Shown: positions 2,728 through 36,899, numbered from the stretch's first letter. The stretch: 48,917 nt of DNA from an uncultured Candidatus Saccharibacteria bacterium (GCA_964655705.1 CAZZPP010000001.1:9207-58123), one strand, 5' to 3'. Translations and numbers: made by a program. The notes: generated by a model from the letters alone, not told the origin.

Positions 2728-3576
2728 ATGAAAATACTTGATGGTAAACAAACAGCATTAAAGATATCCACTAGATTGAAAAAAGAAATATCAGAATTCT
2801 TACAACAAGGGAAGAGAGCTCCTAAGATAGAAATAATTCTTGTTGGAGATGATTATGCAAGTAAGATGTATGTAGATATGAAATCTAAGAAAGCTCTGGA
2901 TTTAGGTATAGATGTAAAAGTACATTCTTTAGAAGAAAACACAACAACAGAGGAGTTGGAAAAAATCTTAAACGAGTTAAATCAGAATGCCAGTATCGAT
3001 GGAATAATGGTTCAATTACCATTACCAAAACATATTGAGGAGAAAAGAATCCTGGGAATTATTTCTCCTCTTAAAGATGTAGATGGATTAACATCATATA
3101 ACTTGGGGAAACTTTTTAAAAATGATAGCAGTGCAATAGCGCCAGCAACTGCAAAGGGTGTAATACTACTTCTTAAAGAATACGACATCCAAATTGATGG
3201 TAAAAATGTAGTTGTAATTGGAAGGGGGGATATTGCAGGACTACCAATTGCAGCTATGCTTCAAAATGAAAATGGTACTGTAACAATATGTCATTCACAT
3301 ACGCAGAACTTAAAAGGAATATGTAAGAATGCCGATATCTTAGTATCTAGTATAGGGAAACCTGAATATATTAATTCTGAATATATTAAAGAAGGAAGCA
3401 TTGTAATTGATGTAGGAACCAACAGGAATACTGATGGAAAGTTAGTAGGAGATATAGACTTTTACTCTGTTAAAGATTTAGTCAAATATATTACACCAGT
3501 ACCTGGTGGTGTCGGCCCTATGACAATTGCTTGTCTGTTTGATAATTTAATTGAGATATATAGAAAGAATGTATAA
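2728..3576 (+). CDS. folD: Methylenetetrahydrofolate dehydrogenase/cyclohydrolase
   Basis: MKILDGK start, [31 protein letters not shown]. Confidence 0.97.
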
Positions 3577-4798
3577 AGACGAGATTTTTAAATATATAGA
3601 TGAAGAAGCGAAAAGACAGAAGGAAGGAATAGAGTTAATTGCTTCAGAAAACTATGTAAGTGAGGATGTCCTTAAAGCAATGGGAAGTATATTAACAAAC
3701 AAATATTCTGAAGGATATCCAGACAAAAGATATTATGGTGGAAATAAATATATAGATGAAATAGAAAAAGAGTGTATCCAAAGGGCTAAAGATCTTTTTA
3801 AGGCAGAGCATGTTAATGTTCAACCATATTCTGGCTCTCCTGCTAATTTAGCAGTACATCTTGCGTTCTTAAATCCAGGAGATAAAACAATGGGTATGGA
3901 ACTTTCTGCGGGAGGACATCTAACACACGGTTTTAAAGTATCTATCAGTGGTAAATATTTTAATTCTGTAAGTTATGGTGTAAATAGAGAAGGATATATT
4001 GACTATAATGAAGTAAGAGAAATTGCATTAGAGCATAAACCTAAATTAATATGGAGTGGATTTAGTGCATACTCAAGAGTTATTGATTGGAATGAATTTA
4101 GAAAGATAGCAGATGAGGTTGGAGCAATATTAGTTGCAGATATAGCACATGTTGCAGGATTAATTGCAGCAGGAGTATACCCATCTCCTGTAGGTATTGC
4201 TGATGTAGTCACTACAACCACACATAAGACTCTAAGAGGTCCTCGTGGTGCGATGATTATGTGTAAAGAGGAGTATGGAGAGGTAATAGATAAGGCGGTA
4301 TTCCCTGGTCTTCAGGGAGGCCCCCATAACCATACAACTGCAGGTATAGCGATAGCCCTTAAAGAGGCTATGAGTGATGAATTTAAAGAGTATTCCAAAC
4401 AAATAGTATTAAACTCAAAAGCTTTAGCTAAAGCATTGATGGATAAAGGGTATAGCATTGTATCTGGGGGAACAGATAATCATTTGTTCTTGGTTGATAC
4501 TGTAAAAAGTGTAAACATGAGTGGTAAAGAGGCTTCGGATATTTTGGAAAGTGTAAATATTACATTAAACAAAAATAGTATCCCATACGATGAAAGAAAA
4601 CCATGGGATCCATCAGGTGTAAGAATAGGAACACCAGCGATTACAACTAGAGGCATGAAAGAGAAAGAGATGGAACAGATAGCAGGATATATAGATAGAG
4701 CATTAAAGAGTAAATCAAAGGAGGAGATCAATTTAATTAGAGATGAGGTTAAGAAGTTTACTAAAGATTTTCCAATTCCTGGAATAGATAAATTGTAA
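3569..4798 (+). CDS. glyA: Serine hydroxymethyltransferase
   Basis: [41 protein letters not shown] (PLP Lys), [17 protein letters not shown] 3569 preferred to TTG 3551. Confidence 0.98.
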
Positions 4799-4808
4799 TA
4801 CATCTTAA

Positions 4809-6404
4809 ATGAAGGGTAATTTCTTAAAAGAGTTACAGATTGCTACCGTACAATCTGAATCTAATTGGAATCATTTTAAAGTTCACACTCTTCTACAAAA
4901 CTGTCATCAGAAACAACCCTCAATTAATGCTTACCTTGGAGCAAGATATAGTAGATCTAGTGATAGTATTGTTGATATTGCAAAAGAAATTATTCAAAAC
5001 AATACAGATGCAGCACAAAGACTAGAAGCAATATTCCATGGGTATGGTCATAAATCAGTAGGAGATATGGCAGAGCTTTTTGTATGTATAGAGAATATCC
5101 CAATGTATACAGCTATGAGAATTTTCTACCTTAATTCCGTTATCTCTGGTCAAGAGAGATCTACAAGATATCAAAATTTTAAAGATCCTCAATATATAAA
5201 AATTCCTAAAGAGGTTTGTAGCGATGAGAACATTAGAAAGGAGTATGAATCAATAATATTAAAACAGATGAACGACTATTCCTCTCTTTTAGAGAAAACA
5301 AAAGTATATCTCAAAGAATATTTCCATATTGATGAGGAGATTAAAGAAGAAAAATCTGTTCTTCAAGCTAGAAGTTTTGATACTGCTAGGTATCTATTAC
5401 CTTATGGATTACAAACGAGTATGGCAGCAGTGATGTCTGCAAGAAATTGGTCTGAACTAATTTCCTATCTTCATGCTAGTGACAATGTTGTAGAAAATGA
5501 AATTGGTAAACTACTTTACAATCTCTTGGGTGAATCTAAGATAGATATTAATGGATATATTAGAGAAGCAGATGGACTAATTAGGCATACTGATGCTAAC
5601 TGTTGTAGAAGAAATTCAACTAATGAGATATTAGAATATATATCTAAAGGAGTATTCCCACAAAAGGAGTATGAAAATATGGGTTGTGAGTGTGATTCTT
5701 GTAGTGTTAGTTTTCATACCAATACTACTGAGAATCTCGTAACTAACTATGAATTACTTCTTAATCCATTAGGTAGTACTAATGAGTATGAATTTGATCA
5801 AGAGGATTGTAAGGAGATCGGGGGAATTATATTTGAGAATCATAATCAGCACAATTTAATGGGAAATATTGGACAGAGTGGTGCTATTAAAATAGAGGGA
5901 ATGGCTACATTAGGAACACTTAAAGATTTAAATAGGCATAGAAGTTTAGAAAGATATATTCCTCTATTTCATGATCAAATAAATATAGATAACGAATTAG
6001 ATAGGGATAATGAAGATTGCTTCTTCCTATGCAACTATCTCGAGATTCCTAAACTAAAAGAGTTAAGGAAAGAGTATGAGAATTGTTTGAAAGATACATA
6101 TGATTTGATAAAAAAGTGGAGAAAAGTCTCATCTCAGTTTATGTCCGATGAAGTATCAAAAGAGTATACTAAGTATTTACTACCCCATGCACATTCCACA
6201 AAGTATATCTTCTATGGTTCCTTTGATGATTTGCAGTACACAATTAATCTGAGGAGTAGAAGAGGTGGACATATCTCATACCGAAGTTTAGTGTATAGGT
6301 GGTTGGAACTATTAAACAGTGAAGAGAGTATATGGTATCCTTTATTGAATAGTATTGAGTCCCCAGACCCTAGTTCTAGGGAGCAGTTTCTAGATAGAAG
6401 TTAA
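4809..6404 (+). CDS. thyX: FAD-dependent thymidylate synthase, long two-domain form
   Basis: ARYSRS, GYGHKSV, QERSTRY in domain 1; DLNRHRS and YTINLRS in domain 2; context folD-glyA-dcd. Confidence 0.88.
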   Translation: MKGNFLKELQIATVQSESNWNHFKVHTLLQNCHQKQPSINAYLGARYSRSSDSIVDIAKEIIQNNTDAAQRLEAIFHGYGHKSVGDMAELFVCIENIPMYTAMRIFYLNSVISGQERSTRYQNFKDPQYIKIPKEVCSDENIRKEYESIILKQMNDYSSLLEKTKVYLKEYFHIDEEIKEEKSVLQARSFDTARYLLPYGLQTSMAAVMSARNWSELISYLHASDNVVENEIGKLLYNLLGESKIDINGYIREADGLIRHTDANCCRRNSTNEILEYISKGVFPQKEYENMGCECDSCSVSFHTNTTENLVTNYELLLNPLGSTNEYEFDQEDCKEIGGIIFENHNQHNLMGNIGQSGAIKIEGMATLGTLKDLNRHRSLERYIPLFHDQINIDNELDRDNEDCFFLCNYLEIPKLKELRKEYENCLKDTYDLIKKWRKVSSQFMSDEVSKEYTKYLLPHAHSTKYIFYGSFDDLQYTINLRSRRGGHISYRSLVYRWLELLNSEESIWYPLLNSIESPDPSSREQFLDRS

Positions 6405-6421
6405 ATTTAAACAGAAGAGAA

Positions 6422-6982
6422 ATGATACTTGCTGATAGGAGTATAAAAGAGAAATTGCGCAGTGGGGAGATAAGTATAGAGCCTTTCTCGGATGAATTTC
6501 TACAGCCTGCTTCATATGATTTACATTTAGATAAAAACATATTACTGTTTAATACGGATAAGCATGATTCCATTGATGTAAAAAATCCTGTAGAAGATTT
6601 AATGATTAAGGTAGAGATGAGTGAACAAGAGGGTTTTTTGATTAAACCAAGCCAATTCATACTAGCTAACGCAGTGGAGATAACAGGTGTAGACGCAAGA
6701 CATGTGGGTAGACTTGAAGGTAAGAGCTCCTTAGCCAGAATGGGCTTAATCATACATGTTACCGCAGGATTTTTAGATCCTGGTAATAAACTAAGATTAA
6801 CTTTAGAGATAGTAAATCTTTCTCCTTTACCAATTAGGATATATCCAGGTATGAAGATTGCTCAACTAGCTTTTGAGGAATTAGATAAAAATTGTGAAAG
6901 GCCCTACGGTAGTACTGGCTTAAATAGTAAGTACAAAGGAGATTTAACAGTTCAGGCTAGTAAGATGTATAAGAATTTTTAA
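6422..6982 (+). CDS. dcd: dCTP deaminase
   Basis: MILAD, QPASYDL, GKSSLARMG, TAGFLDPG, LTLEIVN, GMKIAQL. Confidence 0.96.
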   Translation: MILADRSIKEKLRSGEISIEPFSDEFLQPASYDLHLDKNILLFNTDKHDSIDVKNPVEDLMIKVEMSEQEGFLIKPSQFILANAVEITGVDARHVGRLEGKSSLARMGLIIHVTAGFLDPGNKLRLTLEIVNLSPLPIRIYPGMKIAQLAFEELDKNCERPYGSTGLNSKYKGDLTVQASKMYKNF

Positions 6983-6998: not shown

Positions 6999-8291
6999 AT
7001 GTTTGATGATATTAGAAAAGAGTTTCCCATATTAAAAAGTAGCATCTTTGATAGGGGATTAGTGTATTTAGATAGTGCTGCTACAACACAGAAACCTCAA
7101 GTAGTAATAGATAGAATATCTCAGTATTACAGTAAAGAGAATGCAAATATTCATAGAGGCCCATATGATTTGTCCATTAATGCTACAAATCTTTGGAAAG
7201 AGTCCCATCAAATAGTAGCTGATTTCTTAAATGCAGATTCATACAAGGAGATACTCTTTGTTAGAAATACTACAGAGGGTTTAAACTTCTTAGTAAACAC
7301 TTTTGGAAAGACTCTTCTTTCTGAGGGAGATACTGTAGTAATAACTGAAATGGAGCACCATAGTAATATTGTACCTTGGATGATACTTCAAAGAGATATT
7401 AAATTTAATATTGAGTATATTCCTGTTAAAGATGATTACACACTTGATTTAGACTGGGTAAAGGATTTAATTAAGAAAGAAGACAAGAGGATAAAGGTCA
7501 TATCTGTAATGCATATTTCTAATGTCTTAGGTGTTAAGAATGATGTAAAGGAGATATTTAAGATGGCTAAGAAAATAGGGGCTTTTACAATACTTGATGC
7601 AGCTCAAAGTATTGCTAGATGTAAAGTGGATGTTAAAGAGATTGGATGTGATGCTTTGGTATTTTCAGGACATAAGGTATATGGTCCTACAGGTAGTGGC
7701 GCCATATATATTAATCTGAAATATCTCGATAACCTTTTACCATGGATGGGAGGTGGGGAGATGATTGAGTCTGTTACTAAGGAAGGTTTTGAATATAATG
7801 AATTACCTTGGAAATTCGAAGCAGGTACTCCTGACATTGCAGATGGGATAGCACTAGGTACCGCATTAAATTGGTTAAGGGATACTGTTGAAAAGGTGGG
7901 TGGTTGGGATATGGTAATTAATCATGAACAGGGATTAATGGGTAACTTCCTAAATGAGTTTAATGGTATTGATTGGTTTGTTCATTTTGGTCCTGATGAT
8001 ATAGCTCTTAAGTATGGGGCTATTGCATTCAATATTAAGGGTTTTAAGTTTAGAGGATGTAAGGATGTTAATAGTCTTGATACTAAACAGGATGGAGAGG
8101 GGATTATGGAGTTTCTAAATAGAAAAGGTATTGCATTTAGAGAAGGGTTTCATTGTGCAGAGCCCTTACATGATAGATTCTGTACAGGTCCTACATTAAG
8201 ATTAAGTCTGGGTATATACAGCAATGAGTCTGATATGAAGTATGCTGCTAACTCTCTTAAAGAGGCTGTACTAAGTGGTCTAGCCTTGTAA
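6999..8291 (+). CDS. sufS: SufS-type cysteine desulfurase
   Basis: YLDSAATTQKP, EMEHHSN, DAAQS, FSGHK.YGP, FEAGTP, REGFHCA (catalytic Cys). Confidence 0.9.
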   Translation: MFDDIRKEFPILKSSIFDRGLVYLDSAATTQKPQVVIDRISQYYSKENANIHRGPYDLSINATNLWKESHQIVADFLNADSYKEILFVRNTTEGLNFLVNTFGKTLLSEGDTVVITEMEHHSNIVPWMILQRDIKFNIEYIPVKDDYTLDLDWVKDLIKKEDKRIKVISVMHISNVLGVKNDVKEIFKMAKKIGAFTILDAAQSIARCKVDVKEIGCDALVFSGHKVYGPTGSGAIYINLKYLDNLLPWMGGGEMIESVTKEGFEYNELPWKFEAGTPDIADGIALGTALNWLRDTVEKVGGWDMVINHEQGLMGNFLNEFNGIDWFVHFGPDDIALKYGAIAFNIKGFKFRGCKDVNSLDTKQDGEGIMEFLNRKGIAFREGFHCAEPLHDRFCTGPTLRLSLGIYSNESDMKYAANSLKEAVLSGLAL

Positions 8292-8364
8292 TATATATCA
8301 TAATCATATGTTTTATCTATGTTATAGGTCAGGAATCTGTGCCTCTAATATGATATATTTTGAT

Positions 8365-9459
8365 ATGGATTACTCAAATGACAATGGGATGATTGCTGAA
8401 ATAGTAGAGTTAGGAAATAAACTCTCTTCTTCTAATACGCCTGTTGAATTAAAAGAACAGGTTATGCGTACCATACAAAGACTTGAGAGAATGGCTAAAT
8501 GGGGTAGCTATAGTTCTGAATTTGAGAGTGTAGATAAATATGTTGATTGGGTAACAAGAATACCTTGGGGAGTAGTTTCTGAAGACAATTTAGATATTAA
8601 GAATGCAAAAGAGCTCTTAGATTCTACTCACTATGGAATAGAAACAGTAAAGGAGATGATATTGGACTATATTGCAGCTATGCAATTAAAGAAGTTGGTT
8701 AAAGGGAAAGATAGTGTTGAAAAAACTCCTACTACTCCAACATTACTTTTCCTAGGTCTTCAGGGTATTGGTAAGACAACTATTGCTCAATCAATAGCAA
8801 AGGCTATGGGTAGGAAGTTTGCTAGAATATCTTTAGGTGCAGTCGGTGATGTAAGAACTCTAAGAGGTGTTCCTAGGCATGAGATAGATTCAGAACCTGG
8901 TCAAGTTATTAAGGCATTAGTAAGAACAGGTACTATGAATCCCGTTATATTGGTAGATGAAATTGAAAAGTCTAGTCAAAACAAGGGTGTCTTAAATGAT
9001 ATTATGGCTGCCCTTTTAGAAATCTTAGATCCTGAACAGAATTCTACTTTTGTAGACCACTATATTGATCATCCAGTAGATCTTTCTCAAGTCTTTTTCA
9101 TTTGTACAGCAAACAACTTAGGAGGGCTATCTGCTGCATTACTAGACAGATTAGAGGTAATCCGTTTTACTAGTTACAATGATCAAGAAAAAGAAGTTAT
9201 TGCAAAACAATATATTCTCCCTAAGGTTTTTGCTAGTATGGGATTGTCTGCTGAATATCTTCAGATATCTCAAGAGGTATGGCCACTTTTAATTAGGCCT
9301 GTTGGTTTTGATGCAGGAATACGTCAATTAGAAAGGAATATCTCTACGTTAGCCAGAAGTGCTGCTAGAGAGATTGTAAGTGGTAAGAGAATACCTGTTG
9401 TAATTACTCCTGAGAACTTAAAGCAGTATGTACTACCTGATCAGGGACCCCTAAGTTAG
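8365..9459 (+). CDS. Lon-family AAA+ ATPase lacking the C-terminal protease domain
   Basis: Lon-like W...IPW, L...HYG...VKE, Walker A GLQGIGKT, Walker B ILVDEIEK, ALLEILDPEQN, TAN, LLDRLE. Stop follows the lid helices. Start 8365 chosen because TG-A-TATATT lies 5 nt upstream (track start 8308). Confidence 0.85.
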   Translation: MDYSNDNGMIAEIVELGNKLSSSNTPVELKEQVMRTIQRLERMAKWGSYSSEFESVDKYVDWVTRIPWGVVSEDNLDIKNAKELLDSTHYGIETVKEMILDYIAAMQLKKLVKGKDSVEKTPTTPTLLFLGLQGIGKTTIAQSIAKAMGRKFARISLGAVGDVRTLRGVPRHEIDSEPGQVIKALVRTGTMNPVILVDEIEKSSQNKGVLNDIMAALLEILDPEQNSTFVDHYIDHPVDLSQVFFICTANNLGGLSAALLDRLEVIRFTSYNDQEKEVIAKQYILPKVFASMGLSAEYLQISQEVWPLLIRPVGFDAGIRQLERNISTLARSAAREIVSGKRIPVVITPENLKQYVLPDQGPLS

Positions 9460-9662
9460 ACTCCTCTAAATGGGTTTACTAATCTTAATGCTTTCTTTGC
9501 TCTATCTAGTGAAGGCTCAAAAGAAATTTTCTGGGTACTAGGTTTTACTGTTTTAACATTAGGATTATTTGTTAGAGGAATATTAGATGGTAGAACAGAG
9601 GAATCTGTTGTTGCATTGTATTGATATATTACCTTTCTATTGTTGTTTTGGTTGTTGTTCAT
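9456..9662 (-). CDS. Possible 68-aa small protein downstream of virB4-like gene
   Basis: Fills the 9460-9636 gap; its stop overlaps the convergent Lon-like stop (TTAG); codon choice resembles neighbouring minus-strand genes; no recognisable domain. Confidence 0.4.
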   Translation of the reverse strand: MNNNQNNNRKVIYQYNATTDSSVLPSNIPLTNNPNVKTVKPSTQKISFEPSLDRAKKALRLVNPFRGV

Positions 9663-12012
9663 TCTCATCTCCTATCATACCTTGAGGAGTAATATGTGCT
9701 CTACCCCTTTGTATATCCTGTCTTTCTTTTACTACCTGTCCAGGGACAGTGTTTTCCTGAATTAATTGATTTACACTTTTCTGAGAAGCGTATTTCTCAG
9801 GATTTAATTCTCTTTCTTGTTCAACTAATTTCTTCTTAAGTTCTTCTTGGTACCTTATCCTTTCATCCTTGATTACTTCGATATCTTCTTTTCTCTTACC
9901 AACAGCTCTCTCGATTAGGTCTCTGTTTTTAGAAGTCTCTGTCGATATTTGACTTTGAGTAGCAGGTGCATCAAAGATTGCAGAGAGTTCTTCAATTGTT
10001 CTTTTATCTATACTTACCTTGTTAATTCCTCTTCTTTCAATTTCTCTTGGATCTGAAGTAATTAATTCATTCTCTTGAACACTAGAGAGTACCTGGATTG
10101 CCACATGATTCTGTCCAGCAAAGAAAAGGCCTTGTCCCTTCTCACAGTTAAGTAAGAATACCCTCTCTCCATCGGAGAGATGAAAGGTAGGTTGTAAAAC
10201 ATCTAAAGCAGAGGGACTTTGCATCATGAGCATAGACATGGAAGCATTTTGAATAATGGCTCTACCCATATCATTGTTTAGGAAATCTGCAACATCTTGT
10301 GTAATGGTAGTCAGACCAAGGTAGTATTTCCTCGCTCTTTTAGCAATTGAATACATAAATCTAGCAGAGTCCTCCCTTTGCATCATATACCAGGCCTCAT
10401 CCACGATTAGAAGTCTTCTTTTCTTGTTTTTACGTATAACTGTCCATATGAAGTCTAACATTAGATACATGGCTAGAGGTTTCAATTCTTCCTGTAGATC
10501 TCTTACACTGAATACGGTAAAAGGATTTTTAATTTCAAAGTTGGTTGCCTCGTTAAATACTCCTGCACCACTACCAATTATAAATCTCTCCATTCTTCTT
10601 GCTAGGTTATGTGCTTCATCTTCAGCCATACCTTTAAGAACCTTATACAAGTCTTCTAACATTGGTGGAGAATTCTTTTGAGTTGCTGGGTCATATGTAA
10701 TACCTTTCTCTCTGTATGCTAGTATTATTGCCCTATCTAGTATAGATACCTCTACACTTGTTAATCCATCAAACATTACTTTGAAAAACCCTAATAGTGA
10801 TTGACTCTTTATTCTTAACTCATCTTCCCCCTCTTCAAAGACACCTGAGAGTTCAAATGGATTCATCTTGTCTCCTTTGTCTTGAGAGAAGGAAATATAT
10901 GATCCACCAACTGCTCTGGAGAGGTCTTCATACTCTCTTTCTGGATCAATAATTATTACATCTGTACCTAACATTAGACTACGAAGAGCCTCAAGTTTAA
11001 CAAAGTAGCTTTTACCTGCTCCTGATTTAGCGAATACAACAGCATTTGCATTCTCTAATTCAAACCTATCAAATATTACTAAACTCTTGTTATGCATATT
11101 AATCCCATACATTATTCCATGATCCATAGTTAACTCAGAAGTAACAAATGGGAATGTTGTAGCTAGAGATGTTGTATCCATATTCCTAGTTACATACAGT
11201 TTGTCTAGTCCCAGTGGTTGTGTACTTATGAATCCCTGTTCTTGTTGTAGAGTAGCTGATTTAGCTGTAACACTAATTGCAGCTAATGTAGATACTACAT
11301 TACGACTATATTTTTCTAAAAGATCTTTGGTAGGGGCATATATTGTAATGTACATTGTAAAATGAAAAAACTTCTCGGTACCCTCTGCAATTGAATCCTG
11401 AAGTTGCTGTGCATCAGAAAGTGCTACCTTAACAGAAGCATCAATTACCTTCCTGTCCTCCATCTGTCCATATATTGTAGCTTCCATTTCAGCTATCTTC
11501 TTTCTCAATTTCTCTAAAATGACTTTAGAATCTACAGGGTAGTAGAAAGTACTTATTCGAAGAGAATGCTCAAAGTTAATGATTGGGGATAGCCAATTAG
11601 GTCCTACAAACCTAGGATATCCACTTACAAAGAAAGTTCTAAAGTAGTAATCCCCCATTTGAAGAGTATTGAAATCTACTTCAATATCTATGGGAGCAAT
11701 TACATCCTGAGTGGTTAATCCATCATACTTAGCTATATTCGGTTCTTTTACAACTACTGGCTGTACTTTCTGTTTAGGCATTAACATATCTAAAAGTTTA
11801 AACAATGGATTCTTCTTCTCTTTCTTTTCATCTTCCTTAACTTCGTTGAATCTCTCCTTTTCTCCAGTAACAGGCTCGCTCTTCTTCTGTTGTATATCAG
11901 CAATATCTTTTGCCAAATCTTCTTTGAAAGATGCAAACTTATCTCCAGAGATGGTACTCTGTTTCTCTTCTAGCATTTCCATTGTTTTTGATTTAAATTT
12001 GTTCTCTTCCAT
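9637..12012 (-). CDS. VirB4/TraC/TcpF-like type IV secretion ATPase
   Basis: Walker A AKSGAGKS, IIIDPEREY, MNPFEL, Walker B LIVDEAW, RARKY, TITQDVADFL; T(S)LAT.FPF upstream of the ATPase domain. Confidence 0.9.
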   Translation of the reverse strand: MEENKFKSKTMEMLEEKQSTISGDKFASFKEDLAKDIADIQQKKSEPVTGEKERFNEVKEDEKKEKKNPLFKLLDMLMPKQKVQPVVVKEPNIAKYDGLTTQDVIAPIDIEVDFNTLQMGDYYFRTFFVSGYPRFVGPNWLSPIINFEHSLRISTFYYPVDSKVILEKLRKKIAEMEATIYGQMEDRKVIDASVKVALSDAQQLQDSIAEGTEKFFHFTMYITIYAPTKDLLEKYSRNVVSTLAAISVTAKSATLQQEQGFISTQPLGLDKLYVTRNMDTTSLATTFPFVTSELTMDHGIMYGINMHNKSLVIFDRFELENANAVVFAKSGAGKSYFVKLEALRSLMLGTDVIIIDPEREYEDLSRAVGGSYISFSQDKGDKMNPFELSGVFEEGEDELRIKSQSLLGFFKVMFDGLTSVEVSILDRAIILAYREKGITYDPATQKNSPPMLEDLYKVLKGMAEDEAHNLARRMERFIIGSGAGVFNEATNFEIKNPFTVFSVRDLQEELKPLAMYLMLDFIWTVIRKNKKRRLLIVDEAWYMMQREDSARFMYSIAKRARKYYLGLTTITQDVADFLNNDMGRAIIQNASMSMLMMQSPSALDVLQPTFHLSDGERVFLLNCEKGQGLFFAGQNHVAIQVLSSVQENELITSDPREIERRGINKVSIDKRTIEELSAIFDAPATQSQISTETSKNRDLIERAVGKRKEDIEVIKDERIRYQEELKKKLVEQERELNPEKYASQKSVNQLIQENTVPGQVVKERQDIQRGRAHITPQGMIGDENEQQPKQQ

Positions 12013-12016
12013 TTCT

Positions 12017-12658
12017 CTATGTCATCTCTTCCTCTGGATTATATATTGTGTAAACCTCAGTAAGGAGTTCTTTGTTAGTTAGTTGTTTCCCTGTAAGCCC
12101 CATACGAGACAACTGTTTTAAAATATGATCTCTTTTGGGATAGAGAAATATCTTAGCTTTCTCTACAAGTTGTTCTTGTTTCATACTCTGATTTCTAGCA
12201 ACCTCCTCTTTACTCTTCTTTGATTTAAGAAGATTAGAAGTAGGGATATCTCCCCCAGGGTTGAAAGGTATTACAAGAAAGAAGTTTTTGTCTAACACAT
12301 CATTTTCTATAATTAGACGCTGAATGAATTCGGTATATATATGTAATTGGTTCTTTAATCCCTCTGTCATAGCCTTATTCTCTTGATTTTTAAGATAGTC
12401 TACATAATTAGAGATATCTATTCTCCTAGTACGTATTAATATCTGTATGTGAAAGTTTAAAGAGTTTAGTAGGCCAGCAAATGCAAAAACCTTACTATCT
12501 TGTTCATATTCAGCAAGTAAATCAAAGTTAATAGCGGATGTCTGGATTATAATAGCGACACTCCCACTTTGAGTAATTACTAAATCATCAACAATATCCC
12601 TTATCTCTAAGTGTTCTTGCGTAGATGAAGTTGTTCTTGCCCTTGCATTTGTATCCAT
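12017..12658 (-). CDS. TraC-like accessory protein of CPR-type T4SS locus
   Basis: QEHLEIRDIVDDLVI, AINFDLL..EQ....AF..LLNSLNF.IQILI, KNFFLVIP pattern; lies between PrgI and VirB4 and is translationally coupled. Confidence 0.65.
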   Translation of the reverse strand: MDTNARARTTSSTQEHLEIRDIVDDLVITQSGSVAIIIQTSAINFDLLAEYEQDSKVFAFAGLLNSLNFHIQILIRTRRIDISNYVDYLKNQENKAMTEGLKNQLHIYTEFIQRLIIENDVLDKNFFLVIPFNPGGDIPTSNLLKSKKSKEEVARNQSMKQEQLVEKAKIFLYPKRDHILKQLSRMGLTGKQLTNKELLTEVYTIYNPEEEMT

Positions 12659-13488
12659 TATTGTATTGTAATTTTATATGGCAATTTACCCATATTCTTT
12701 GTTAAAACAATCTGTATGGAGGGTATACTAAAAGGTACTCCTTCGAATTGTATATTATATATTCCTTCAGGATACTCTTTGTTTGTTAAAAAGTAACCAT
12801 TCTTACCAGTCTTATTTGCATACAAAATCTTCTCATTATTATCCTTGAGGTATGTTTTAATATCAGATACAGGTTGATTATCTTTTGTACTGAGCCATAT
12901 ATTAATATTTCCAGGGAGTCTATCAACACTTTTAATATCAAACTGGTACTTAGATATATTTTCTTCATTAATGATAATGGGTTGGGGAGTATCAAGTTCA
13001 AGATGTTCCTCCTCCTGATCCTTAACTATATTACTTTTAACTATTTCTCCATTGCCCTCTTCAAACATATCATCACCTTGATCTTCAGTAAAAATATCCT
13101 TCCCCTCTTCCTTGACCTTAGAACCACCAAAAATCTTTTGGTTCTTCTTCTCAGGTTGTACTGAGGGTTTAATCCTTTGCTCTTTAAGTGCACTATTTAA
13201 CCATACTCTTTGAGTAGGCCTATTAATCGCAGAAAAGAAATTAGATATGAATCTGTCTGCAGGTTGATCATTAATTGGAACAAGAGCAAAGAATACTCCT
13301 AGACCAGAAAATAGCAAGAACATGGGTACCCCTATAACCCCAGGGAATTGTCCTTTAGTTGTGAAGTAGAGAAATACTCCTCCGATACTTACACCAATTG
13401 CAAGATATGCAAACTCTTTTAATGTAAACTTAGTAAAAAGTTTAAACTCCACATCTAAGATATTTTGTGGTATAGGGTGTTGTCTCAT
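12658..13488 (-). CDS. PrgI (VirB3-like) membrane protein with C-terminal beta-sandwich extension
   Basis: QHPIPQNI..VEFKL...FTLKEF.YL start, two TM helices, PIN.QP.D.FI.NF; stop/start overlap with the next gene. Confidence 0.75.
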   Translation of the reverse strand: MRQHPIPQNILDVEFKLFTKFTLKEFAYLAIGVSIGGVFLYFTTKGQFPGVIGVPMFLLFSGLGVFFALVPINDQPADRFISNFFSAINRPTQRVWLNSALKEQRIKPSVQPEKKNQKIFGGSKVKEEGKDIFTEDQGDDMFEEGNGEIVKSNIVKDQEEEHLELDTPQPIIINEENISKYQFDIKSVDRLPGNINIWLSTKDNQPVSDIKTYLKDNNEKILYANKTGKNGYFLTNKEYPEGIYNIQFEGVPFSIPSIQIVLTKNMGKLPYKITIQ

Positions 13489-34793: not shown

Positions 34794-36899
34794 ATGTTGT
34801 TTAATCATAAGATTTATGAATTTGAGATTGATGGAAGAAAGTGTTCTTTTGAAACAGGAAAACTTGCATTAAAATCAGAGAGTGCAGTTATTGCACGAAT
34901 GGGTGATACAGTTGTAGAGGTTAATGTTAATACATCTCCTGCTAAACAGGAGAGTGATTACTTCCCTATGTCTGTTGAGTATATTGAGAGATTCTATGCA
35001 TCTGGAAAGATAAATGGTTCTAGGTTTGTTAAGATTGAAAGATTTCCTAGTGATGATGCAATCCTTAAAGCAAGGATGATAGATAGGGCACTGAGATCTA
35101 GATTTCCTAGTGACTATAGAGATGATTTAAGTCTCATTGTTACAGTAATGTCATATGACGAAGAGAATGACCCCGTAATATTAGCAATTAACGCTGCTTC
35201 AGTAGCATTGCTAAATTCTAAAGCACCATTTGATGGACCTGTTGCAGGTGTAAGAATGGGAATGGAGAATGGTGAAATAAAAGGGGTTTACAAAAGTTTA
35301 GAGGATGTAAGTGAACAAGATGTCTTAAACTATGTATTAGGAGGAGATGAGAAACTGTTTACAATGATTGATGCTGGTTGCTATGAACTCCCAGAAGATC
35401 AAGTATTAAAAGCTATGGAGTTAGGTTTAGTGGAAATGAAGAAATGGATATCTGCTCAAAATGAGTTTGTTAAGCTACTTGAGAAGAAAGAGAAGACTTA
35501 CAAGTCATATGCACTAGATGAGAATATGATAAAGGAGATGGAGGAGTTTCTGGGAGAAAGAACAATTGAGAATCTTTTGAAAGGTGATAAGTCTGTTCAC
35601 GAGTCTACTAAGGAAGAGGTATTTGAAAAATTTGCAGGTAAATATACCAAGTTACAAATGAGTGAAGGGTATGAGAAATTACTTAAGAAGGCAATGAGAA
35701 AGTATGTTGTAGAACAAAAGAAACGAGCTGATGGGAGAGGGTATGATGAAATTAGGGAGATGGATGCCCAGATTGATTTACTACCTAGAGTCCATGGATC
35801 TGGATTGTTTACTAGAGGTGTTACTCAAGTACTCTCTATTGCAACCCTAGGTACTCTAGAAGATGCAAAAATGGTAGATGATATGTTAGGAGAGAAAGAG
35901 AAAAGGTATATGCATTACTACAATGATTTACCTTTTGCATATGGTGATACTGATAGGGTAAGACTATCTCCAAGTAGAAGAGCTATTGGTCATGGGATGC
36001 TTGCTGAGAAAGCATTAATACCTGTAATCCCATCTGTTGAAGAATTCCCTTACACAATATTAGTAATGTCAGAAGTACAAGGAGAAAACGGATCTTCATC
36101 TATGGCATCTGCCTGTGGTTCAACCTTAGCCTTAATGGCTGCGGGTGTTCCAATTAAAAAGATGGTTGGTGGTATAGCTTGTGGGTTAGTAGCAGAAGAG
36201 AATGGAGAATTCCATATTCTTACTGATATGCAAGGAGTAGAAGATTTCTATGGGGATATGGATTTCAAGATTACTGGAACAAAAGATGGTATTACTGCAG
36301 TACAGATGGATAACAAGATGTCTGGACTAAGTATGGATATTGTAAAAGCAACCTTTGAAAAGTCAAAGATAGCAAGAGCAGAGGTTTTAAAGATTATGGA
36401 GAAAGCAATTGCTCAACCTAAGGAGCAGTTATCAGAATTCGCACCTAAGGTAGCAAGAGCATCAATCCCAGTAGAAAAGATTGGTGAGTTAATAGGGCCT
36501 GGAGGGAAAAATATTAGGGAGTTAACTGAAAGAACAGGAGCAAAGATATCAGTCGAAGAAAGTGGTGCTGTAAATATCTATTCTATGGATCAAAGTTCCA
36601 TTGATGCAGCATTATCCTATGTAAAAAAATTGGGATTAGTACCGGTAGTAGGAGAAATATATGATGGTAAGGTAGCAACTATTATGGAGTATGGTGCTTT
36701 TGTTGATATTGCACCTGGGATATCAGGTCTTGTTCATGTCTCTGAAATTGCAGAAGGGTTTGTAAAAGATGTAAGAAAATATCTTAAAGAGGGAGATGAT
36801 GTTAAAGTTAAACTCCTTTCTAAGGAAAGAGACGGGAAATTGAAGTTAAGTATTAAACAGGTAGATGCTCCAAAAGAGAAGAGTGAAGCTGTTGAATAG
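34794..36899 (+). CDS. pnp: Polyribonucleotide nucleotidyltransferase
   Basis: ETGKLA, R.IDR.LR, R.DGR, HGSGLFTRG.TQ, RR.IGHG, NGSSSMA, GDMDFK, KH (IG.LIGPGGK) and S1 domains. Confidence 0.97.
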   Translation: MLFNHKIYEFEIDGRKCSFETGKLALKSESAVIARMGDTVVEVNVNTSPAKQESDYFPMSVEYIERFYASGKINGSRFVKIERFPSDDAILKARMIDRALRSRFPSDYRDDLSLIVTVMSYDEENDPVILAINAASVALLNSKAPFDGPVAGVRMGMENGEIKGVYKSLEDVSEQDVLNYVLGGDEKLFTMIDAGCYELPEDQVLKAMELGLVEMKKWISAQNEFVKLLEKKEKTYKSYALDENMIKEMEEFLGERTIENLLKGDKSVHESTKEEVFEKFAGKYTKLQMSEGYEKLLKKAMRKYVVEQKKRADGRGYDEIREMDAQIDLLPRVHGSGLFTRGVTQVLSIATLGTLEDAKMVDDMLGEKEKRYMHYYNDLPFAYGDTDRVRLSPSRRAIGHGMLAEKALIPVIPSVEEFPYTILVMSEVQGENGSSSMASACGSTLALMAAGVPIKKMVGGIACGLVAEENGEFHILTDMQGVEDFYGDMDFKITGTKDGITAVQMDNKMSGLSMDIVKATFEKSKIARAEVLKIMEKAIAQPKEQLSEFAPKVARASIPVEKIGELIGPGGKNIRELTERTGAKISVEESGAVNIYSMDQSSIDAALSYVKKLGLVPVVGEIYDGKVATIMEYGAFVDIAPGISGLVHVSEIAEGFVKDVRKYLKEGDDVKVKLLSKERDGKLKLSIKQVDAPKEKSEAVE

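Follow-up and report, generated by a model that had tools for sequence, protein, structure and literature searches.

A protease-less, Lon-type AAA+ ATPase family with rebuilt pore loops in Patescibacteria

Lon is the textbook example of an ATPase fused to a protease, and its chaperone-like activity has long been debated. To our knowledge, all described Lon subfamilies retain the protease domain. A gene for what appears to be the ATPase part alone (hereafter lon') lies next to an opposite-strand virB4 locus in a 48,917-nt stretch of DNA (i.e. the window, meaning the whole stretch that was analysed) from a patescibacterial genome, raising the question of what a Lon motor does once parted from its protease. 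A preliminary description of this locus had proposed an unfoldase or disassembly ATPase, perhaps acting on secretion substrates or docking on a separate peptidase. A literature search, which covered full texts outside subscription journals and depended on the noisy term 'lon', found no description of a protease-less Lon family in Patescibacteria. The features of the locus are collected in Table 1.

Table 1. Coordinates of lon', its encoded motifs and the neighbouring genes in the window
Feature	Position	Strand	Remarks
lon' (protease-less Lon-type ATPase gene)	8365..9459	+	Frame opens at 8308; likely ATG 8350 or 8365; stop TAG 9457-9459
N-terminal helical region	8377..8703	+	Residues 24-132 of P0001; LonA three-helix bundle and helices into the AAA+ core
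Walker A, GLQGIGKT	8755..8778	+	Residues 150-157
Pore loop 1, rebuilt, RGVPRHEIDSEPGQ	8863..8904	+	Residues 186-199; Glu in place of the substrate-gripping Tyr of Lon; acidic
Walker B, VILVDEIEK	8944..8970	+	Residues 213-221
Pore loop 2, rebuilt	8971..9021	+	Residues 222-238; without aromatic; two residues longer than that of Lon
Sensor 1 (ICTANN, N269) and Arg finger (LLDRLEVI, R281)	9100..9162	+	Both residues invariant
Lid segment, VWPLLIRPVGFDAGIRQLER	9277..9336	+	Family motif W..[RK]P.G[FY]D and sensor II Arg R339
C-terminal tail, VLPDQGPLS	9430..9456	+	Start of the Lon AAA-protease linker; class-specific ending
Class-V aminotransferase (SufS-like)	6999..8291	+	Co-directional upstream neighbour; Pfam, synteny
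Conserved 70-aa ORF downstream of virB4	9456..9668	-	Overlaps the lon' stop codon tail-to-tail
T4SS core	9637..13488	-	VirB4 9637..12012; TrsD-like 12017..12658; PrgI/VirB3-like 12658..13488

The open reading frame occupies positions 8308..9459 (+) and encodes 383 aa, or 364-383 aa depending on the start. Translation is likely to begin at ATG 8350 (M15) or ATG 8365 (M20) rather than at 8308, as several relatives of the same genus carry a stop 5' of this point, the frames of relatives open with MIYF.MD or MD[YL], and residues 1-21 of the 383-aa frame have pLDDT values of <50 and are predicted to be disordered. Position 8365, originally proposed as the start, is one of these two likely starts, with ATG 8350 standing on an equal footing. 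The sequence 5' of the start is conserved across the genus, stop codons notwithstanding, and AATCTGTGCC is found at 8334..8343 (+), 6 nt ahead of ATG 8350. The nearest proteins in the databases carry the names Candidatus Dojkabacteria or WS6 and, in the source databases, the lon' product is labelled 'AAA family ATPase' or, by JGI, 'ATP-dependent Lon protease'. The latter label is wrong for lon' genes and should be avoided. Metatranscriptome contigs from three runs of one anaerobic-digester study covered positions 8387-8833 (0 differences), 9037-9452 (1 difference) and 9193-9629 (0 differences); the presence of lon' sequence in RNA libraries is a hint of expression, with DNA carry-over as a possible source, and parts of the window without contig cover in these runs are uninformative.

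Domain content was examined with profile and structure searches. Pfam detected an AAA domain (PF00004; residues 146-288, 68.6 bits) and a Lon_lid domain (PF22667; residues 311-360, 36.7 bits) and nothing else. Neither Lon_C (PF05362, i.e. the S16 domain with the Ser-Lys dyad) nor the LON N-domain (PF02190, LON_substr_bdg) was found in the protein, in agreement with the description of a product that ends at PDQGPLS without a protease domain or a long N-domain; the LON N-domain was also not detected in the genome at E<=0.1. The Lon (endopeptidase La) model TIGR00763 was matched only at model positions 256-567 of 795, with a score (333.4 bits) under the curated cut-off of 608, and the protein passed no model of NCBIfam release 20.0. 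Lon chains of the PDB were matched by sequence at E-values of 1e-66 to 5e-76, the alignment to B. subtilis Lon (3m6a; E 5e-76) ending with the end of the 3m6a AAA+ module, and other AAA+ families scored low (e.g. ClpA, 43 bits; RuvB, 21 bits). An AlphaFold2 model with 47 family members in the alignment had a pLDDT of 88.4 and a pTM of 0.83, and its best structural matches were the AAA+ chains of LonA and LONP1 (E 3e-32, TMq 0.74-0.80). The modelled N-terminal helices span residues 24-40, 46-65, 69-84, 97-107 and 112-132, in a region that pairs in the alignment with the Lon residues directly ahead of the ATPase. The lon' protein is a LonA three-helix bundle (a term used in passages of PMC8519571), an AAA+ module and a lid, ending in the AAA-protease linker. 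The previous description of a stand-alone Lon-type module without a protease is supported.

The C-terminus (...ENLKQYVLPDQGPLS) consists of the first residues of the Lon AAA-protease linker and, as in the rest of the family, lies no more than about 10 residues from the [YF][LV]P linker motif. DQGP[LI]S-type endings were found in the clade of the organism's own class. In a MAFFT alignment PDQGPLS was paired with the catalytic PKDGPSA of Lon (3/7 residues matching); this pairing is an end-gap artefact, and the tail was dropped as a vestige of the catalytic site because its natural counterpart is the Lon linker YLGP..., with the other clades of such proteins finishing at YLPK[YW].

A separate protease half was sought in the rest of the genome. 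A six-frame search of the whole genome for Lon_C gave one weak match (25 bits), located in a 449-aa gene that is radA (TIGR00416, 448.6 bits; cut-off 403), and a ChlI/Lon_C-like model likewise found the RadA gene only. Across 41 genomes of the order, including the source genome, the best Lon_C scores were <=27 bits, mostly in RadA-sized frames of ~450 aa, with the identity as RadA confirmed for the source genome only. No stand-alone Lon_C partner gene was detected in the source genome or in 40 relatives, so a split Lon with a free-standing partner was not seen; such a gene could lie in the unassembled part of the source genome, which comprises 809 kb in 23 contigs and is 98% complete. A proteasome or HslV was not found in the source genome and ClpX was not found above cut-off there or in 5/5 other CPR genomes tested. 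ClpP, FtsH and two Hsp100/ClpC-type ATPases are present. The genes for trigger factor and ClpP are adjacent on one contig (C10; L031 401..2046), as they are in other bacteria, and are not followed by clpX.

The residues predicted to bind and hydrolyse ATP were all invariant among 47 relatives of the same architecture (hereafter short forms), and this holds also for the Arg finger, which acts in trans, and for the base loop before sensor 1. These comprise G150, G153, G155, K156 and T157 of Walker A, D217 and E218 of Walker B, N269 of sensor 1, R281 of the Arg finger, R339 and R343 of the sensor II helix, and D241, Q244 and N245 of the base loop. The Walker A, Walker B, sensor-1 and Arg-finger motifs had correctly been recognised and are intact, and translation confirmed a Walker A of GLQGIGKT rather than GPPGVGKT, with L151 of the short forms standing where Lon has Pro. 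According to passages of PMC8503904, the homologous Arg484, Arg541 and Asp444-Pro445-Glu446 of MtaLonA form the inter-subunit ATP site.

The pore loops have been rebuilt. According to the same paper, the substrate of MtaLonA is held by Tyr397 of pore loop 1 and Trp431 of pore loop 2. The pore-loop-1 position was Tyr in 30/30 full-length Lons and aromatic in only 13/65 short forms (E 19, F 9, S 8, H 7, L 5, Y 4 and others), with Glu in the lon' protein, whilst the pore-loop-2 aromatic was present in 29/30 full-length Lons as compared to 4/65 short forms. The net charge of pore loop 1 was about -1 (range -2 to +1) in short forms and +3 in full-length Lons. As the flanks of pore loop 1 (RG ... 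EPG) stay conserved, the loop appears to have been re-selected and not left to decay. These changes argue against the classical unfoldase suggested initially, although some grip on polypeptides may survive in those parts of the family that have Phe or Tyr in pore loop 1. A further difference was observed in the lid, where W..[RK]P.G[FY]D.G.R was found in 65/65 short forms and its counterpart YT.E[AS]G.R in 30/30 full-length Lons. The lon' protein carries the short-form signature, i.e. L151, E196-P-G, W325 and P331-x-G-[FY]-D.

The distribution of the short form was determined at the levels of order and phylum. Conservation of the truncated form was borne out in 38/41 genomes of the order, with open frames of 293-549 aa, none longer, and no full-length lon at the locus in relatives; the three genomes without it are 79%, 84% and 91% complete. 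Among 301 genomes of the phylum (>=80% complete), 94 had a Lon-like match, and frame lengths were bimodal (~330-450 aa or ~770-880 aa). In a hand count of the table, the short form stood alone in 37 genomes and beside full-length Lon in 34, full-length Lon stood alone in 23 (G111 being ambiguous) and 207 genomes had neither, placing the short form in about 71/301 genomes. The function would therefore be dispensable in most of the phylum. In the order of the source organism the short form is the only relative of Lon, and elsewhere it coexists with true Lon.

Phylogenetic analysis was performed on 308 columns of the AAA+ module. Short forms were aligned with 20 full-length Lons from CPR genomes and with 10 named Lons from other phyla; the frameshifted L018 and 14 own-family rows that were near-duplicates had been removed. 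IQ-TREE separated 56 short from 30 full-length proteins with support of 100/100 and in 100% of 200 bootstrap trees; a quick tree with 55 short forms agreed, the stem measuring 0.62 substitutions per site. Full-length CPR Lons intermingled with the outgroup Lons. The sequence data thus point firmly to a single origin of the short form. Three subclades were resolved. The first, in which the lon' protein of the window nests, is the own class and like the second is short-only, whereas the members of the third come from genomes in which Lon is retained as well. Six ortholog pairs of lon' gave pN values of 0.08-0.18 with pS saturated at 0.60-0.76, which, as far as sequence comparison can show, marks an intact gene under strong purifying selection.

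Matches outside the tree were consistent with this separation. The closest longer proteins in a large protein database were only 33-45% identical to the short form, and a profile of 47 short forms, run against 1.84 billion representatives, scored short single-module proteins at ~420-550 bits and full-length Lons at <=375 bits. Eighteen short or stand-alone representatives contained AAA and Lon_lid only, with P0359 as the exception. This 491-aa protein has a Lon-type AAA+ module, a strong Lon_lid match and, where a protease would be expected, a fused VIT domain; it scored at the level of full-length Lons and is probably from another lineage. The family is old and so far seen in Patescibacteria; lon' was not truncated recently and is not one part of a split gene. 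Specific to Dojkabacteria are the loss of full-length Lon in the order, the DQGPLS tail, a relocation beside the T4SS and a second short paralog. The latter was found in G027 (L123), G035 (L124) and G040 (L125), is 45% identical and 379-548 aa long, branches within the own-class clade, and has a Walker A of GVQG[AS]GKT, a different pore loop and a long low-complexity C-terminal tail.

Other Lon-like architectures were encountered in these searches. Giant metagenomic relatives of Lon (P0241, 1113 aa; P0242, 1675 aa; P0265, 3865 aa; and P0121-P0128) contain 2-4 tandem Lon-type AAA+ modules and Lon_C. The nearest ESM Atlas clusters by language-model features are proteins of ~390-410 aa with AAA and Lon_lid (55-58% of members) from Nucleocytoviricota, together with Bacillota clusters of ~345 aa with AAA, AAA_5 or DUF815; both may be independent stand-alone Lon-like ATPases.

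We consider it rather probable that lon' belongs to a LonA-derived, protease-less family whose members form a Lon-like ring and act as non-degradative, ATP-driven remodellers independently of the T4SS. The short form would be a LonA that has lost both the substrate-recognition domain at its N-terminus and the S16 protease domain at its C-terminus, while retaining the three-helix bundle, AAA+ core and lid. A Lon-like, ATP-hydrolysing ring is suggested by the conservation of a trans-acting ATP site, as this site needs a neighbouring subunit. ATP would then be spent on the non-degradative remodelling of a protein client, perhaps a basic one, which may represent the chaperone-like activity of Lon in a specialised form, with no part taken by the adjacent T4SS genes. 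The absence of a protease and of the two gripping aromatics argues against processive threading for degradation. In LonA the hexamer is held together in part by the protease ring, which leaves ring formation by the short form uncertain. A two-copy complex prediction (residues 28-383 with ATP, run without controls) scored 0.00 as compared to a mark of 0.42, which does not bear on self-association either way. We infer the oligomeric state, the ATPase activity and the client alike.

Among the alternatives, a link to RNA decay carries the most weight, followed by a link to ClpP and then one to the T4SS. The lon' product could be an accessory ATPase of RNA decay acting with PNPase and RNase J (e.g. 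by stripping basic RNA-binding proteins), in which case the position of lon' in the source genome would be secondary. Within flanks of ~1.5 kb, loci outside the own class had the short form directly behind pnp on the same strand (4/13 in clade A, 9/19 in clade B) and ahead of the gene for RNase J (5/13 and 10/19, respectively). By genome coordinates, pnp was <=2.5 kb away in 12/22 genomes for which both positions were listed. The acidic pore loop would also suit basic clients. Uracil-DNA glycosylase (UDG), a DNA-repair enzyme whose presence in the pnp-rnj block speaks against this reading, was encoded downstream of the short form in 7/13 clade A and 4/19 clade B loci. The block was further examined in 20 genomes from 20 families without any Lon relative, reading 4.2 kb 3' of pnp (only 1954 bases at one locus). 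Both UDG and RNase J were present in 7 of these genomes, while one genome had only RNase J, another had only UDG and the remaining 11 had neither. Since the pnp-udg-rnj block thus exists without lon', its gene order gives no more than a slight pointer to function, and synteny as a proof of function is weakened. PNPase itself occurs in 296/301 genomes of the phylum (a count that includes the unpublished G188). In the source genome pnp (34794..36899) is 25 kb from lon' and rnj is on another contig. Overall, a role in RNA decay appears unlikely. Slightly less likely again is its most specific version, in which a Lon motor would have been recruited to a CPR-specific PNPase/RNase J assembly as its ATP-driven remodelling subunit, pulling basic RNA-binding proteins off transcripts with its acidic channel, with the genes merely scattered in Dojkabacteria; if true, the Lon motor would fill the place of DEAD-box helicases in known degradosomes.

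Two further short copies between pnp and rnj, in G059 (L128) and G098 (L129), contain in-frame stops or a frameshift, and both genomes also encode full-length Lon. Such lesions might reflect assembly errors or an occasional decay of short-form genes.

The lon' product might instead serve as the ATPase partner of a separate peptidase, with ClpP as the candidate. Docking would occur through an invariant hydrophobic-Gly-aromatic loop ([VLFM]-G-[FY] in 65/65 short forms and 0/30 full-length Lons), which we take to resemble the ClpP-binding tripeptide of ClpX, ClpA and ClpC, and the presence of ClpP together with the failure to detect ClpX would leave room for such a partner. However, the motif immediately precedes the sensor II Arg within the lid instead of lying on a loop that projects from the large domain, which makes a reshaping of the nucleotide site the more likely role. 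Threading would also require aromatics that the pore loops lack, ClpP already has two Hsp100/ClpC-type ATPases at its disposal, and the other candidate peptidase parts, i.e. Lon_C and HslV, were not found in the source genome. Docking on ClpP is accordingly improbable, at about half the standing of the RNA-decay link.

A tie to the adjacent T4SS, as an accessory or disassembly ATPase, was suggested by the convergent virB4 operon. The core of this T4SS is of the same kind as that described for Patescibacteria in PMC12102498, a survey of virB4 neighbourhoods whose main text makes no mention of Lon or AAA proteins. The direct convergent neighbour of lon' is the 70-aa ORF rather than virB4 itself, which ends at 9637. 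Copies of this ORF (36-58% identical) were present in 16/20 related loci, i.e. 16/17 of those keeping synteny, and it matched no Pfam or NCBIfam model; it is probably a small T4SS-associated protein. The position of lon' beside a convergent virB4 operon was kept in 17/20 loci of the own and nearby genera and virB4 was the convergent neighbour in 13/17 own-class loci, as compared to 0/32 loci of the other two clades (flanks of ~1.5 kb), so the proposed conservation of this adjacency holds within the class and fails elsewhere. The tail-to-tail arrangement means that lon' and the virB4 operon are not co-transcribed, the lon' protein is kept in genomes irrespective of local context, including the 4/17 own-class loci without a virB4 neighbour, and the protein has no Pfam or NCBIfam match to the T4SS ATPase families VirB4, VirB11 or VirD4. 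A role in secretion is therefore very improbable, and the earlier suggestion of an action on secretion substrates is not supported.

On its other side, lon' ends a co-directional run of genes in the window for a sortase, FolD, SHMT, a ThyX-like protein, Dcd and the SufS-like protein. Within this run, FolD, SHMT, the ThyX-like protein and dCTP deaminase form a compact thymidylate/folate cluster (2728..6982, +), and the ThyX-like protein, with 531 aa and two Thy1 stretches, is about twice the usual length. PADLOC models of anti-phage defence gave a best match to DolB (35 bits, P-loop region only) and otherwise weak generic AAA matches.

The reading of lon' as a decaying remnant or one half of a split lon, which its stop exactly at a domain boundary and the JGI annotation might suggest, is refuted by intact frames in nearly all relatives, strong purifying selection, the long stem branch to a single old clade, the failure to find a Lon_C gene across the order and the coexistence with complete Lon in 34 genomes.

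The non-degradative remodeller that we favour can be placed among known systems by what it shares with them and what it lacks. LonA (MEROPS S16; e.g. 3m6a, M. taiwanensis 7fd4 and human LONP1 7ksm) and the short form have the same fold, with ~40-50% identity between LonA and the lon' protein over the module, and share the three-helix bundle, the AAA+ alpha/beta domain, the lid, Walker A and B, sensor 1, Arg finger, sensor II and the pre-sensor-1 base loop DPE. They differ in the LON N-domain and S16 protease domain, which the short form is without, in Walker A (GL.G.GKT as compared to GPPG.GKT of LonA), in the pore loops (acidic and stripped of both aromatics as compared to basic with Tyr and an aromatic), in the lid (P.G[FY]D.G.R as compared to YT.EAGVR) and in phylogeny, where short forms are a clade apart on a stem of ~0.6 substitutions per site. 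The AAA+ fragment of E. coli Lon (6n2i) has nearly the same boundaries (TMt 0.88 over 345 columns; E 4e-68 by sequence), but is an engineered piece of a protease whereas the lon' product is natural, selected and stand-alone, with rebuilt pore loops. The HslU/ClpX/Lon/RuvB clade contains other stand-alone ATPases. HslU and ClpX are likewise AAA+ motors without a covalently attached protease, but keep aromatic pore loops and dock on HslV and ClpP, and HslV and ClpX were not found in the source genome; by sequence the lon' protein is a Lon and not a member of these families. LonC of Meiothermus taiwanensis is a Lon-like protease with a degenerate ATPase and mirrors the short form, having kept the protease and lost the ATPase function where the short form did the reverse.

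These findings bear on protein quality control in ultra-small CPR bacteria, in which ClpX, HslUV and, in the order, the Lon protease were missing from the genomes tested. The short form also illustrates the course that AAA+ pore loops take in evolution when a motor no longer has to thread substrate into a protease, and provides a test case for the Lon motor apart from degradation, i.e. for the chaperone-like activity of Lon.
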